Below, piece after piece: positions 8,190-14,099 of a stretch of DNA of 64,000 nucleotides. Each line of letters starts with the position of its first letter. The stretch's first letter is position 1. The position numbers were made by a program, and so were the translations under genes. The notes below the pieces were generated by a model. It made no database searches. It saw only the letters and a list, made by a program, of their open reading frames with translations, and was not told the origin of the DNA. The stretch comes from Alkalispirochaeta sp. (GTDB lineage: Bacteria; Spirochaetota; Spirochaetia; DSM-27196; Alkalispirochaetaceae). The DNA is taken from contig OZ271854.1 in the NCBI GenBank assembly GCA_965601925.1, positions 3,424,001-3,488,000 of the forward strand, read 5' to 3'.

Positions 8190-9872
8190 TTACCCCACGA
8201 TGGCCGCGAGGTCGTCCTCGACGGTGGTCGTTACCGCGAGATCGAAGGTCTCCACCAACACTTTCGCGACCCCCGGGCTGAGAAACGCCGGCAACGTCGG
8301 GCCGATCCGTACACCCTTGAACCCGAGGGCGAGGAGGGCGAGAAGCACCGCCACGGCCTTCTGTTCGTACCACGCGATGTCGAACTCGATGGGAAGATCA
8401 TTGATATCTCCCACCTCGAAGATCTCTTTTAGCTTGAGGGCAATGACCGCCAAGGAGTAGCTATCGTTGCATTGCCCCGCATCCAGAACCCGCGGAATGC
8501 CGCCTATGTCACCGAGATCGAGTTTGTTGTAGCGATACTTGGCACACCCGGCCGTAAGGATGACCGCGTCTGCCGGAAGTGCTCGAGCCATATCGGTGAA
8601 GTAGCTTCTCCCCTTCTGGCGTCCGTCGCATCCGGCCATCACGACGAACTTTTTGATCGCACCCGACTTGACCGCGTCGACTACCGTATCGGCGAGGGCT
8701 GTAACCTGGGCGTGGGCGAATCCGCCGGTAATGGTGCCGGATTCCAACTCCGTGGGCGGTGGGCAACGCTTCGCAAGCTCGATGATCTCCGAGAAGTCTT
8801 TGCGCGACTCCGGCGCTCCGTCCCGATCGGGAATGTGCGTGATACCCGGGAAGGCGACCGCTCCCGTGGTGAAGATACGCTCCTTGTACGCGTCCTTCGG
8901 GGGAACGAGGCAGTTGGTCGTCATGAGAATCGGTCCGTTGAACGACGCGAACTCCTTGTCCTGGAGCCACCACGAGTTACCGTAGTTGCCGACAAAGTGA
9001 GAGTACTTCTTGAACACCGGATAGTAGTGCGCCGGAAGCATCTCGCCGTGGGTGTACACATCGACACCGCTGTCTGCGGTCTGCTCCAGTAGCTCATGCA
9101 GATCTTTGAGATCGTGTCCCGAAATAAGGATACCCGGGCGCGTCCCGACGCCGATATTGACCTGCGTAATCTCAGGGTTCCCGTAGGTCTCCGTGTTGGC
9201 GCGGTCCAAGAGTGCCATGACGGTGACTGCCGCGTTTCCCGTATCGAGGACGAGTTGCGTGAGCTCCTCGGCCGTCCCGGCGGTGACCGTTCCCGCGAGG
9301 ATTCGTATCACTTCGCGGTAGAGGGCGGAATCCTCGTACCCCAGGACCGCCGCGTGGTCTCCGTACGCCGCGATTCCCTTCACTCCGTAGATTGTGAGCT
9401 CCCGCAGCGCCCGAGCATCTTCATCGACCTCGGCGAGGATGGACGCCTCGGGAATCATGGCGTATAGCGCCGCTATATCACCCTCCGCGGCGCTCCACTT
9501 CACCGTACGGGGCAGATCGATCGTGGGCGCATGGCGTTGAATCGTCGCCGCAACGTCCCCTTTGAGTCGGAGTGTGAGCCCTATCATGTGCGCGAGACGC
9601 GCATCGTCGAAGGTGGCGTTGGTGATGGTTGCAAAGAGGGTGTGAAAAATCGTCCGGCCGCTCTCGACAACGGTCGCCTCAAAATCGACCGCTTTTTTGG
9701 TGTCGTCCGCAATGCTGCGATCGAGAGTCTCTACCGCCAGGGCGAGACCGCGGACCGCGTATACCAGAACGTCCTGAAGATTGGCCGTCGATTCCTCTTT
9801 GCCGCACACACCGCGCACCGTACACCCGATATTGCCCGCCGCCTCCTGGCATTGAAAACAGAACATGCTCAT
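8190..9872 (-). CDS. hcp: Hybrid cluster protein (hydroxylamine/NO reductase)
   Basis: N-terminal [19 protein letters not shown] (C-x2-C-x8-C-x5-C), [46 protein letters not shown]. Confidence 0.97.
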
Positions 9873-9939
9873 ACAATTCCTCCTGGATAGAACTCAGTCA
9901 GTTTTTTTTGTGACTTCCCCATTCTCCCGCACTCCCATA

Positions 9940-10543
9940 GCCGTGTAATTGACCCCGGTCAATTCGGTGATGTTTTATCGCATTCCCTTTGAGACCAGGC
10001 CGAACTGACCTCCGCCCCGGTCAGTTCGTTGTTGCTTTGCCGCGCTCCCTATGAGAACAGGCCGAATTGACCTCTGCCCCGGTCAATTCGTTGGCGTTTT
10101 CTCGCATTCCCTTTGAGACCAGGCCGAACTGACCTCCGCCCCGGTCAGTTCGTTGTTGCTTTGCCGCGCTCCCTATGAGAACAGGCCGAATTGACCTCCG
10201 CCCCCGGTCGATTCGTTGGTGCTTTGCCGCGCTCCCTATGAGAACAAGCCGAATTGACCTCCCCCCCGGTCAATTCAGTGGTGCTTTGCCGCGCTCCCTA
10301 TGAGAACAAGCCGAATTGACCTCCCCCCCGGTCAATTCAGTGGTGCTTTGCCGCGCTCCCTATGAGAACAAGCCGAATTGACCTCCGCCCCCGGTCAATT
10401 CAGTGGTGCTTTGCCGCGCTCCCTATGAGAACAAGCCGAATTGACCTCCGCCCCGGTCAATTCGTTAGTGCTTTCCTACATTCCCTCTAAGAATGGGCCG
10501 AATTGACCTCTGCCTCCGGTCAATTCGGTGATGTTTTCTCGCA
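9940..10543. repeat. Tandem array of 10 palindrome-containing units, period 62-63 bp (first unit shorter)
   Basis: Units start at about 9940, 9999, 10061, 10123, 10185, 10248, 10310, 10372, 10435, 10497. Consensus GCC-GAATTGACC-(8-9 nt C-rich)-GGTCAATTC plus a 33-nt homologous linker. Confidence 0.97.
9947..9964. promoter_or_regulatory. Fnr-type box upstream of hcp (probable site of the adjacent Crp/Fnr regulator)
   Basis: AATTGACC-CC-GGTCAATT = TTGAC-N4-GTCAA. Centre 9955.5; a -41.5 geometry places the -10 at GAGAAT (9926-9921, minus strand). Confidence 0.75.
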
Positions 10544-10604: not shown

Positions 10605-11471
10605 CTACTCCGGCAGCCTCGTGTCGTTCGCGAACTCGTCGAGGTGCCCGCCGCAGCGGATCGCAATTCGTAGTTCCTCGTGGAGTCGGTCCAGGCGGTG
10701 TAATTTCCGCGCCATCTCCACCTCCGCGTCGTTTCGCCGAATGACGTCGGTGACGCCGCCACGGGACAGGACGATTCTTCTTGAGGCGGAGAGCGCCAGG
10801 GACGGGTCGTGGGTGACGACCAGTACGATCTTGTCGGCCCCGCTCAAGAACGCAATCGCCTCGTGACGGTTGATTCCGGCGTTCTCGATCTCGTCTATGA
10901 GGACGATCGGCGAGACCGAGAGGAGGGCCGTGTCGGCTATCATAAGAGAGCGGGACTGCCCGCCGCTCAGTTCGGTGAGCTCGCGATCGGCGTCGATGGG
11001 CTCCCCGGTCAAGCGGTTGGCCGCCTCGATCACTTCGCAGACGACCGACTCGTCCACCTCGATGCCGCGGCTCTCTCCGTGAAGCTCCAAAAACTCGCGT
11101 ACCGTCGCGTCCATGACGAAGTTCATGTTCTGCGAAAGCTGCGCGACCAACCGTCCGCCGCCGGCGTAGCGACGCGACAGATCGGGCTCCTCTCCGTTGA
11201 TGCGTATCGAGCGTCCCGTGGGCGTATCTCCCTGGGCGAGCCACTCGATGTCCGCGAGGAGACGGCTTTTGCCGCTGCCGGTGGAGCCGACGATACACAC
11301 CACCTCCCCGGAAGAGATCGTCAACTCCTCGTACGTCTCCGCCGCGCCGGACTTGTCGTGTCCCGGCAGGATCGTCACGGTCTCGACCTCATGCTCGTTA
11401 TGAAGTGTCTCCGATTCGCCGGTGAGTGCCGCGATCGCTTCCGCGACCGACACGTCGTTCGTCGTTTTCAT
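10605..11471 (-). CDS. ABC-type ATPase with no adjacent permease
   Basis: Walker A GSTGSGKS, signature LSGGQ, Walker B VLIDE, H-loop VTHD. Confidence 0.9.
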   Translation of the reverse strand: MKTTNDVSVAEAIAALTGESETLHNEHEVETVTILPGHDKSGAAETYEELTISSGEVVCIVGSTGSGKSRLLADIEWLAQGDTPTGRSIRINGEEPDLSRRYAGGGRLVAQLSQNMNFVMDATVREFLELHGESRGIEVDESVVCEVIEAANRLTGEPIDADRELTELSGGQSRSLMIADTALLSVSPIVLIDEIENAGINRHEAIAFLSGADKIVLVVTHDPSLALSASRRIVLSRGGVTDVIRRNDAEVEMARKLHRLDRLHEELRIAIRCGGHLDEFANDTRLPE

Positions 11472-12175
11472 GAATGGTAATCTCCCGAGGTGAGCTCGAT
11501 TGTCGTCACGTTGCCGATCTGGTGAGCCGATCCGATTCGCTCTTCTCCCAAACAGTAGCTACACACGGCGCTCGGCATGGGATAGCGCAGGCGCGACCCG
11601 GTCACGCCCGCCTGCTCCGGCGCCTCGTCACGCAACAGTCGCGCCAACTCGAACGCTCCCTGGCCGGTAAGGCCGTTGATCGGAAGAATGCGAGAGCGCG
11701 GATTGGCGGAGTGAACCCGGGAAGCGAAGACTTCGCGCTCCGCTTGGCTCACTACGTCGCCTTTGGTTACTACCACGACGTCGGCGGTACGGAGCATGGG
11801 GCCGACCTTACGCGGCGTGTTTATACCACTTAAGTTGTCGATGACCGCCACGGCGTAGACGTCGCGAATGTGGGGCGAACAGCGGTTGCAGAGCCCGGCG
11901 GACTCGGTGAAGAGGATCGAGAAGTCGTGGCGATCTCCCCACGCAAAGGTCCGCTCGATGTTACTGGCAAAGTAGTGGTCCGGGCAGATCGATCCGGATA
12001 GACCCTTCTGGACCGGAATGCCGGCCCGCTCGTACCGTTCGTCGTCGTCGGTGACCAAGCAGTCGAACTTGACTACACCGGTGGCGATCTCCATTCTCCG
12101 GAGCTCTTGAATCGTTTTGAGGATGACCGAGGTCTTGCCGCACGATGGAGGGCCGGCGATCGTAACGAGCTTCAT
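11468..12175 (-). CDS. G3E family (HypB/UreG-like) Cys-rich GTPase
   Basis: GPPSCGKT, CPDH, ESAGLCNRC, TKGD, C-terminal CSYC. Start at ATG 12175 (MKLVTIAG), overlapping the upstream stop. Confidence 0.88.
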   Translation of the reverse strand: MKLVTIAGPPSCGKTSVILKTIQELRRMEIATGVVKFDCLVTDDDERYERAGIPVQKGLSGSICPDHYFASNIERTFAWGDRHDFSILFTESAGLCNRCSPHIRDVYAVAVIDNLSGINTPRKVGPMLRTADVVVVTKGDVVSQAEREVFASRVHSANPRSRILPINGLTGQGAFELARLLRDEAPEQAGVTGSRLRYPMPSAVCSYCLGEERIGSAHQIGNVTTIELTSGDYHS

Positions 12176-13425
12176 GATATCTTCGCTCCTCGGTGCGGCA
12201 TGCGTCCGCCGGCGTCGGTGCGGTCGGCGACGAGGCGCGAAAAGGCGGCGGTCGTCCGCTCCAAGGTTCGCGGTAGTTCGTCGGACAACAGGAGGTCCCA
12301 GCCCGGCCACTGGAGCGGATGCGCCTCGGCGTCGAAATCGTCGTTTGCAGGGTGCGTGGAAGGAAAGAGTCCGAGACGCGTCAGGACGCGGCTCATCGAC
12401 TCACCGGCGATAACGTCGATGAGGGGCTGAATTTCCGGCCTGTCGGCTCGAGTAACCAGGAGAACCGGCGCCGTCAAGGCTCCGTCTTCGGGCCACACGG
12501 CGATCAACGGACTATCTTCGGTGATGGTCCGGGTAAAGAAGTAGGGCATGATGGTGATCGCCGGACGTTCGACGTCGTTCGTCGAGGCGGGACGGGCCGA
12601 GGAGATCATCTGGGCGGGGTGCATGGACTGAAACATATTACGGGCGAGTCTCTCGATACCTTCGGTCCCGAACGTGCGCTCGACACCGATAAGGAGTGAG
12701 TCGAAGAGGTCGAAGTCGCCGATCGGCAGCGCAAGGCTATTCTCGTACTCCGGCGAGAGGATCTCGGCCCAACTCTGCGGTACCGGCCTGTCTCCCAGAA
12801 GGTCGAGATTTACCATGAAGACTGCGGGAACCACCGAGATTACCGAAAAGGCTTTGTGCGGATCCGCCAATGAGTTGACCGTGCCGAGCGTGTTGAGCCG
12901 GGGCCACCCCGTGCGGTCTGCAAAGGCGCCGGAGTCTCTCAGCGAGCGAAAGCGCCGGTCGGTGAAGAACAGCCGGAACCCGGCGGAGAGAAAGATGTCC
13001 GGCAGATCGTCCACCGTCGGTTCCGACGAGATGTGCTCCTCCAGCCACTCCGTACCGGTGTATGCTGCTTGGAGGTTGCACGTCACCGCACTTCCCGTCC
13101 GTTCGCTGAACTGTGCTACGGCGCTCTCTAAGACGTTGGTCATCGGAATACGGATAGGGCATGGAACGAGGCCCGCAATCGTCACCGGGCGCGAGGCGCC
13201 GCTACCCCGTGCACCGTGTTTCGCCGCCCCGCGGAGTCGTAACAGGAGATCGGACGGCTCCAGCCCCACGGCTATCGCCGCCGAACGGACGGTGACGGCG
13301 ACGCCGAACCGCTCGAGCACGTCGCTATCCGTTATGCGCCGAAATCCCGCGTCGGCCAAAACGGGGATCGTCTGCGGAAATGCGCCGGTCACTTCGTATA
13401 TGGTGCTCGTCTCTTGTATCTTCAT
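12172..13425 (-). CDS. ABC substrate-binding-fold protein with N-terminal DUF1858-like domain and no signal peptide
   Basis: N-terminus STIYEVTGAFPQTIPVLADAGF; then GLVPCPIRIP, PQSWAEIL, VWPEDGA. No hydrophobic leader or lipobox. Confidence 0.75.
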   Translation of the reverse strand: MKIQETSTIYEVTGAFPQTIPVLADAGFRRITDSDVLERFGVAVTVRSAAIAVGLEPSDLLLRLRGAAKHGARGSGASRPVTIAGLVPCPIRIPMTNVLESAVAQFSERTGSAVTCNLQAAYTGTEWLEEHISSEPTVDDLPDIFLSAGFRLFFTDRRFRSLRDSGAFADRTGWPRLNTLGTVNSLADPHKAFSVISVVPAVFMVNLDLLGDRPVPQSWAEILSPEYENSLALPIGDFDLFDSLLIGVERTFGTEGIERLARNMFQSMHPAQMISSARPASTNDVERPAITIMPYFFTRTITEDSPLIAVWPEDGALTAPVLLVTRADRPEIQPLIDVIAGESMSRVLTRLGLFPSTHPANDDFDAEAHPLQWPGWDLLLSDELPRTLERTTAAFSRLVADRTDAGGRMPHRGAKIS

Positions 13426-13459
13426 GGTGTTACGATACGGAGCGAAAGACGATATGTAA

Positions 13460-13473
13460 TTGACCGGGATCAA
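13460..13473. promoter_or_regulatory. Second Fnr-type box, between the divergent binding-protein and Crp/Fnr genes
   Basis: TTGAC-CGGG-ATCAA; shares TGTAATTGACC with the hcp box. Centre 13466.5 is 41.5 nt from ATG 13425, with -10 TATCGT at 13437-13432. Confidence 0.75.
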
Positions 13474-13475
13474 GT

Positions 13476-14099
13476 ATGAACGATTTTTTTTCCGACCTGA
13501 GCGAGCGATCCATCGCCAAGCTGGAGGCAGCTCAGATAACGCGCACCGTCCCCGCCGGGGCGATGATTTTCCTCGAAGACGAGGAAGGGACGCAAATATT
13601 TCGCCTCTTGTCCGGTTCGATTCGGCTGTTTCGCACCGCGCCCGACGGTCGCGAGGTCACGATACACATGGTCCGACCCGGTGAACTCTTTGCCGAGATC
13701 GTCCTCTTCGAGCGTGATACCTATCCGGTCAGCTCGGTGACCGTTGAGGAATCGGTCGTGGCGATCATCCAGCGCAGGAGGGTACTGGCCCTCTTGGGCG
13801 ACGCGGCGTTTCGCGAGGAGTTCCTGCGTAACATCGTCGGTAAGATGCGCTTTCTCTCTCAACAGTTGTACATTTTGGCAACAATGGATGTCCGGCGTCG
13901 GTTGATTCGCTTTTTAGAGGTTCGCTACGGTCGAAAAGGTGCGATCGAGAGCGAGCTCTCCAAGCGTGACACCGCCGCAGCCATCTCCGTGCGTCCCGAG
14001 ACCCTCTCACGCACCCTCGCCGCCTTGAGCGACGAGGGGCTTTTGGAGTGGAAGGGCCGTCGGATTACCGTCGACGCCGCGGCGTGGAACGAGGTGTAG
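13476..14099 (+). CDS. Crp/Fnr family regulator (HcpR/Dnr-like)
   Basis: cNMP-fold GELFAE..YP; recognition helix RPETLSR; no Cys, so not Fe-S Fnr; adjacent to the hcp locus. Confidence 0.9.
   Translation: MNDFFSDLSERSIAKLEAAQITRTVPAGAMIFLEDEEGTQIFRLLSGSIRLFRTAPDGREVTIHMVRPGELFAEIVLFERDTYPVSSVTVEESVVAIIQRRRVLALLGDAAFREEFLRNIVGKMRFLSQQLYILATMDVRRRLIRFLEVRYGRKGAIESELSKRDTAAAISVRPETLSRTLAALSDEGLLEWKGRRITVDAAAWNEV

Follow-up and report, generated by a model that had tools for sequence, protein, structure and literature searches.

The window analysed here, a stretch of 64,000 nucleotides from the 5.05-Mb genome of an Alkalispirochaeta species, holds the gene for a hybrid cluster protein (hcp, linked to nitric-oxide stress) together with an accessory operon upstream of it and a divergent regulator gene. 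Positions are those of the window; those with a contig prefix, or in kb or Mb, refer to the genome. The genes and promoter elements of the locus are as follows.

8190..9872, minus strand: hcp, hybrid cluster protein, 560 aa (Pfam Prismane, E 3e-163; NCBIfam PRK05290 and TIGR01703 above cut-off)
9921..9926, minus strand: putative -10-like hexamer GAGAAT in class II geometry, following the intact box at 22 nt (comparison of box-bearing loci)
9949..9962, unstranded: intact HcpR-type box TTGAC-N4-GTCAA (sequence, relatives, consensus in PMC1274295)
10605..11471, minus strand: ABC-type ATPase gene, last of the upstream operon (Pfam ABC_tran)
11468..12175, minus strand: CobW/HypB/UreG-like GTPase gene (below NCBIfam cut-offs)
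12172..13425, minus strand: gene for a DUF1858 and solute-binding protein (domain search)
13460..13473, unstranded: second intact box; TATCGT (13432-13437, minus strand) follows after 22 nt
13476..14099, plus strand: divergent Crp/Fnr regulator, HcpR-like (Pfam cNMP_binding and HTH_Crp_2)

Each intact box (9949-9962 and 13460-13473) is located 22 nt before an NANNNT hexamer, a layout that we take to be the class II arrangement, with the box centred near -41.5. For the second box, class II geometry is predicted from the sequence with respect to the upstream operon. This box ends 2 nt before the ATG of the regulator; through it, the accessory operon would be activated and the regulator gene possibly repressed. 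The genome contains 16 TTGAY-N4-RTCAA sites, two more of which (C1:3624356-3624369 and 3764217-3764230) display the same succession of box, 22 nt and NANNNT, with a putative OsmC-like and an MFS-like ORF downstream (labels from sequence inspection), which may be chance.

The recognition helix of the regulator reads P-E-T-L-S-R. A helix with P-E is paired with a TTGAC box in 4/4 relatives, and the single aligned relative with a GTAAC box carries R-P. No HcpR-named model in NCBIfam or PDB matched the regulator, and the name HcpR, which rests on context and helix residues, fits the HcpR1 regulon as it appears in the accessible part of PMC1274295, with a TTGAC-N4-GTCAA box and Ser/Pro180-Glu181. 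The locus resembles that regulon in its box consensus, the regulator beside hcp, the P-E of the recognition helix and the single site upstream of hcp; the box before hcp combines a conserved TTGAC-N4-GTCAA with a neighbouring Crp/Fnr protein of the S/P180-E181 helix type, as an HcpR1 operator does. In contrast to the locus described below, no tandem array is mentioned in that part of the source (PMC1274295). Likewise, the literature searched, which left most subscription journals outside, yielded no report of an hcp promoter with tandem repeats.

The DNA between the ATPase gene and hcp is occupied by such an array. On the minus strand, the "loop" of its units reads GGGG(G)CRGAG, which we refer to as the joint.

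9953..10542, minus strand: tandem array of nine 62-63-bp units (TRF and splitting by arm)
9957..9981, minus strand: intact box, left arm with flank; repeated directly at 10518-10542 (25 nt, 1 difference)
10002..10027, minus strand: split box u9, sharing the double change (one event) with u7 (sequence)
10064..10089, minus strand: split box u8, joint GGGGCAGAG (sequence)
10126..10151, minus strand: split box u7 with the double change (sequence)
10188..10214, minus strand: split box u6, one unpaired change (sequence)
10251..10338, minus strand: two identical units with split boxes u5 and u4 and joint variant GGGGGGGAG (sequence)
10375..10463, minus strand: split boxes u3 and u2, joint GGGG(G)CGGAG (sequence)
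10500..10526, minus strand: split box u1, which opens the array; 11-bp stem without mismatch, joint variant GGAGGCAGAG (sequence)

TRF places the repeat at 9953-10527 (period 62, 9.2 copies, 87% matches, score 787), and homology extends out to 10542. All ORFs inside the array have 42 aa or fewer, and the array is thus non-coding, in agreement with the first-pass annotation, which had described about 600 bp of non-coding tandem DNA with a period of 62-63 bp. With nine head-to-tail copies the array falls within the definition of a minisatellite (at least four copies of a 10-200-bp unit). It contains ten palindromes, nine with 8-9 nt between the arms and one (9947-9964) with 2 nt; the latter has 8-bp arms and is the TTGAC-N4-GTCAA box that had been assigned to the hcp-proximal unit. 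Expressed as a box spacer, the distance is 10-11 nt in the nine split copies versus 4 in the intact box. The arms and their 8-9-nt gap were recovered as previously described, but the linker, given before as 33 nt, measures 36 nt from one 9-bp core to the next, or 33-34 nt if the full 10-11-bp stems are taken. Of the 8 distinct rows of array units, 4 have an unpaired outermost stem position. Both pairs of units reported as identical, 9999/10123 and 10248/10310, indeed display 0 differences, and we also find the pairing-preserving double change of the former pair, located in its short-loop register, and the single unpaired change of unit 10185. At a distance of 124 bp, 97 nt are repeated exactly (9978-10074 = 10102-10198).

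Short-read contigs of runs X1 and X2 cover the array without listed letter differences, with repeated pieces at ~2x and ~4x the depth of unique pieces. As both runs are recorded as one sample, probably the source, they serve as a check of the assembly and not as an independent occurrence. A contig of run X3 joins across one 124-bp dimer at flank depth, while those of X1 and X2 do not (contigs, one sample), and its differences match exactly the loss of this dimer. This hints at a shorter allele; graph simplification could also give it. An assembly artefact has hardly any probability in our judgement, since short-read contigs reproduce the units with stepped depth, and the same holds for a degenerate CRISPR array of ~29-bp palindromes and 33-bp spacers. 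Period and palindrome length do resemble those of CRISPR. However, the linkers are near-identical copies (mean column identity 86%) and not unique spacers, the CRISPR-like arrays of this genome at 454-465 kb carry another repeat, the commonest linker has 0 exact viral matches, and no Rfam family reaches the gathering score. The combination that marks a CRISPR array, unique spacers between identical repeats with cas genes near, was not found.

The relation of the array to the hcp promoter becomes clearer upon comparison with other genomes. Matches to hcp occur in 28 of 41 genomes, and 30 loci were examined, four of them without the 5' end and one with 15 nt upstream. A TTGAC-type box precedes hcp in 15/30 loci, our own included, and the 14 other genomes have a single box followed by 22 nt and an NANNNT hexamer. 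Of the 15 box-bearing loci, 14 have A at hexamer position 2 and 13 have T at position 6. The first-pass annotation had described the last unit as fused to the hcp promoter, with operator half-sites as arms, and this description holds: the box is of the Crp/Fnr (HcpR) type, lies 22 nt before a -10-like hexamer and is kept in relatives. The ABC ATPase gene directly upstream of hcp recurs at three loci (L007, L011 and L016), and L007 shares the whole order of ATPase gene, box and hcp with less than 100 nt between the genes. Seven loci in five genomes carry a GTAAC-type box before hcp, and three loci carry neither type. The GTAAC-type loci (L018, L020, L022-L024, L029 and L030) belong to more distant genomes of the order, an operator-type switch within one order.

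An array upstream of hcp is absent in all 14 box-bearing relatives, and none of 21 genomes of the family matches the array DNA. The relatives share the box and none has an array before hcp, indicating that the box is old and the array recent; conservation of the array is not observed. Blastn with the array and three units finds no further unit in the own genome (best outside match E 0.18), so that the unit is no dispersed REP or MITE. When metagenomes were scanned for the split box, 4 isolated matches in coding-like DNA and 0 tandem ones came up. A loose repeated-split-box pattern matched 22 of 401 genomes of the class, and among 20 loci examined the 62-bp array occurs in the own locus only.

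Within the array, the hexamer at +22 lacks the A at position 2 in 9/9 copies, and a consensus scan returned 0 promoter-like sites. Functional promoter repeats keep the operator and promoter geometry in their copies; here the operator spacer is 10-11 instead of 4 nt. With this spacer and the -10 lost, only the last box has a working geometry. The segment comprising promoter spacer and -10 aligns in register with the linkers (p 0.006, 0.03, 0.05 and 0.34 for the four linker types, uncorrected), and more weakly in local alignment (p 0.11-0.48). Together with the shared 25-nt end flank, this alignment makes the unit look like a decayed copy of the operator region, in which the box spacer would be 6-7 nt longer and the box-to--10 distance ~5 nt longer. 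The 25-nt direct repeat (9957-9981/10518-10542) would then mark both ends of the original duplication. Half-sites moved 6-7 bp further apart come to lie on opposite faces of the helix, and binding of both by one Crp/Fnr dimer is not to be expected. The literature searched contained no paper on Crp/Fnr spacer length. On sequence grounds, we predict the nine copies to be poor regulator sites, and the last box would still drive hcp.

These features bear on the reading put forward first, that of a selected regulatory array, consisting of phased half-sites, Crp/Fnr decoys or RNA hairpins, whose copy number tunes hcp in the manner of mycobacterial promoter VNTRs. We regard it as quite unlikely. The array does adjoin a real operator, and its arms are more conserved than its linkers (variable columns 3/18 vs 18/36, Fisher p 0.02, units not independent), although lower arm variation would be given by selection and by arm-to-arm correction alike. 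The upstream operon, with its own box, reads toward the array, whose sense strand folds as a chain of hairpins (z -9.4, inflated by repetition). Five terminator-like sites are present versus 0.9 +/- 0.8 in shuffles, three of them on the sense strand with weak U tails. An effect at the RNA level is possible, and the shorter allele hinted at by X3 would fit a variable copy number. Against selection stands the lack of an array in the 14 box-bearing relatives and, the own locus apart, among the 20 loci examined in the class scan, as well as the position of the half-sites on opposite faces that follows from spacers of 10-11 nt. Selection on the palindromes had been suggested from the paired change. 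Only one pair is changed on both sides, a count reached by 61 of 500 shuffles, and the double change falls between the closest arms, where template switching acts. Such switching is known to increase the extent to which arms of imperfect palindromes are identical (PMC3820800, in the accessible part of work on yeast with citations of bacterial studies). Within the linker, a second hairpin, with G-U pairs allowed, does not exceed shuffles (fractions 0.05-0.77), and Rfam returned two chance-level hits only. The marks of a conserved structured RNA (covariation, homologues in relatives, an Rfam family) were thus not found. A role of the array as a CsrA sponge seems doubtful too; CsrA is present, but the CAGAG variant of the loop has no GGA.

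The proposed phasing fares no better. The hcp array has 5.9-6.0 helical turns per unit, whereas the periods of arrays with the same joint elsewhere in the genome correspond to 2.6, 4.3, 4.5 and 5.1 turns. With such unphased sister arrays, the six-turn period looks accidental and needs no explanation. The closest precedent for tuning by copy number is offered by the promoter tandem repeats (VNTR/MIRU) of M. tuberculosis at dop (57 bp), lpdA and cysG, where, in the accessible part of PMC12817950, four promoter copies give 12.5-fold more LpdA. These are likewise 55-65-bp promoter-proximal tandem copies; their number varies, as it may at hcp, and one of the arrays lies upstream of a nitric-oxide-resistance gene. 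They differ in that promoter copies there raise expression, while in the hcp array operator spacing and -10 are broken in 9/9 copies and relatives have no array (PMC12817950, same part). The hcp array works like a promoter VNTR but lacks the geometry of repeated promoters, and it is no REP, CRISPR or conserved RNA. As hcp keeps its own promoter downstream of the array, and arguing from the absence in relatives and from the geometry, we predict little effect on hcp regulation.

A different view of the array is offered by its loop. All five clusters of at least three joints in the genome are hairpin tandem arrays, and the loop of the hcp array is the joint of the four others, which had not been noticed before.

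C1:267321-267816: hairpin array with joint, 27 bp x18
C1:2061 kb: hairpin array with joint, 47 bp x9
C1:2357 kb: hairpin array with joint, 54 bp x7
hcp array with joint, 62 bp x9
C1:4988 kb: hairpin array with joint, 45 bp x5

The first-pass annotation had named absence from relatives and dispersal of the unit as observations that would tell against a role in hcp expression. The former is what we see; the latter does not apply to the unit, which is unique, but does apply to its joint. There are 100 strict or 316 loose matches to the joint outside the five arrays, equivalent to 0.001-0.004 per 62-bp unit. This chance estimate is weakened because there is also a local route to the hcp joint, from the box spacer through a 5-bp slip and one inserted base. 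The variant GGGGGGGAG is present in both the hcp and the 267-kb arrays. In four of the five arrays the joint comes first and a G-run last, while the 2061-kb array does not begin with the joint. At hcp, the terminal G-run is the GGGG spacer of the intact box, read on the minus strand. With polarity set by the skew minimum (1.629 Mb) and dnaA (1.594 Mb), the joint lies on the lagging strand in 5/5 arrays versus 41/100 lone joints, a bias that is suggestive only (two-sided p 0.06, five arrays, three of them kin). These three are built on one dispersed hairpin family, which is itself lagging-biased (13/19 bins). Four other non-coding arrays of at least 4 copies (1523, 1529, 2673 and 4857 kb) are without the exact joint.

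Two other explanations of the joint itself were tried and dropped. No ARAGORN call begins with the joint, which speaks against the 5' end of a tRNA or tmRNA, and a KOPS-like skewed motif does not fit lone joints that lie on the leading strand in 59/100 cases, compared with 340/472 for GGGNAGGG. The 267-kb array is located between a divergent molybdopterin-binding/CinA-like ORF (label from sequence inspection) and a TPR-like ORF, and ends directly at a TATAAT hexamer.

The hcp array has in common with the family arrays a GGGGCRGAG joint between tandem hairpins on the lagging strand. This raises the question of whether its unit derives, by divergence, from the small mobile hairpins of the genome (a REP/SDR-like family), having inserted into the operator centre and resembling the operator by chance. 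The family occurs in 36/99 genomes of the order, and the joint forms the 5' leader of some of its copies (527.7 kb vs 1924.6 kb; lone copy at 841.5 kb). However, the hairpins of the hcp and 267-kb arrays are unrelated to the family, and the hcp array is without its core motifs GCGTTCCTC ... CGGTACGC. This lack of family similarity largely refutes the reading; in addition, the unit has no outside match better than E 0.18, and its arms and flank show the same sequence as the left side of the conserved operator itself. We therefore consider such an origin very unlikely. Two further derivations of the linker were rejected, from a decayed family hairpin (no profile similarity) and from a fold-back copy of the upstream flank (p 0.33-0.82). 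At C1:527630-527716, compared with the sister locus 1924642-1924681, a joint and second hairpin follow the first, resembling a filled and an empty state, and a lone joint with hairpin is seen at C1:841.5 kb.

We hold it probable that the array is a lineage-specific minisatellite of nine split hcp operator copies, likely produced by a genome-wide hairpin-amplifying process at the GGGGCRGAG joint and with little effect on hcp. The observed part of this account comprises the unit anatomy, the single intact end box, the lack of an array in relatives and the joint in four other arrays. Its proposed course would begin with a duplication of ~50 bp around the box between short direct repeats, after which the spacer of the upstream copy would have grown from 4 to 10-11 nt and become the joint. 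In adjacent copies, the right arm of the first would then automatically form an inverted repeat with the left arm of the second, giving the layout of joint, hairpin and GGGG. This unit may have been amplified by slippage or flap capture, probably during lagging-strand synthesis, with slips of 62 and 124 bp in a later phase. Finally, template switching between the close arms would have perfected the stems and copied the one double change.

The same structures might arise from ordinary local slippage, in which the operator region was duplicated and expanded alone and the likeness of loop and joint is coincidental, G-runs being slippery and the box already holding GGGG. Consistent with this, two small events are enough to lead from the spacer to the loop, and the linker falls outside the dispersed hairpin family (48-copy profile, none in the array among 171 matches to E 50; shuffle p 0.47-0.8). 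Two-joint matches outside the own genome (18 of 98 genomes) are near the reversed-pattern control (12). Coincidence is harder to reconcile with the two non-family arrays, hcp and 267 kb, which share both the joint and its GGGGGGGAG variant at a chance of 0.001-0.004 per unit, and with the joint lying on the same strand in all five arrays. On balance, we judge purely local slippage unlikely.

The preferred account, a minisatellite formed by a genome-wide process, can be extended by the hypothesis that amplification is keyed to the sequence, with lagging-strand GGGGCRGAG as the signal that singles out a neighbouring hairpin of any kind (mobile mini-element, promoter hairpin or duplicated operator) for tandem copying. 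This would be an undescribed generator of promoter satellites, here converting an HcpR operator into a variable array; we put it forward as a possibility, and a somewhat doubtful one. If the joint is a true signal, it points to a way of forming bacterial satellites that is linked to a primase, a flap or a recombinase and would go mostly unseen in short-read genomes. If the minisatellite account holds, the locus is a natural record of a transcription factor palindrome turning into a satellite, with operator duplication creating the inverted repeat that feeds amplification. The apparent compensatory change would then need no selection, which cautions against reading such arrays as regulatory.

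A search for candidate enzymes of the Y1/RAYT, RT and TnpB types gave no match in the genome, and neither PF01797 nor NF047646 was found. The 10 Y1 loci in 5 of 21 relatives are flanked by neither joint nor hairpin and have no tblastn match in the own genome. The open frames of sbcD, polA and mutS are intact. An IS91-type Y2 transposase at C1:3754219-3754721 was matched in two reading frames; the joint was not seen at its ends.

Several known repeat classes share part of these properties. The accessible part of PMC6749651 describes non-coding satellites of Leptospira interrogans with 37-69-bp units, which are also intergenic, long in unit, several per genome and often of a length that is no multiple of 3. 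There, the same unit is transposed, whereas the arrays here share the 9-nt joint only and their hairpins differ (PMC6749651). REP/BIME and TIRYT repeats, the latter with a G-rich tag GGGGWSAS, are intergenic palindromes reiterated in tandem with flanking DNA, according to the part of PMC3733652 at hand. In contrast, the hcp array has no GTAG/CGTC tag, its joint misfits GGGGWSAS, its unit is not dispersed and the genome has no Y1 transposase (PMC3733652). For SDR of Nostocaceae, no paper was found in the literature searched.

A scan for the joint across GTDB returned at least 121 stretches, and the 80 examined are mostly other repeat kinds. They include tandem intergenic hairpin repeats of Streptomyces, clostridia and others that share the 9-mer. 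In these, unlike in the own genome, where such sites number 0 and the joint is unpaired, the 9-mer closes its own hairpin with CCCC (24/80 among the matches listed). We know of no name for this GGGGCRGAG-CCCC family. Within the order, a triple joint is present in 3/99 genomes, namely the own genome, G034 and G053, the last with a 24-bp repeat at a contig end; absence elsewhere is weak evidence, as most genomes are fragmented. The G034 case (G034:C168:1749-1825), from another family of the order, is a 34-bp same-joint array right after a stop codon that runs into an N gap. In the own genome, more hairpin arrays with G-run joints like but unequal to the motif are found at C1:4857094-4857346, 1461440-1461531 and 4042530-4042940, in the last of which a tRNA-Leu gene 3' end recurs in units of 137 bp.
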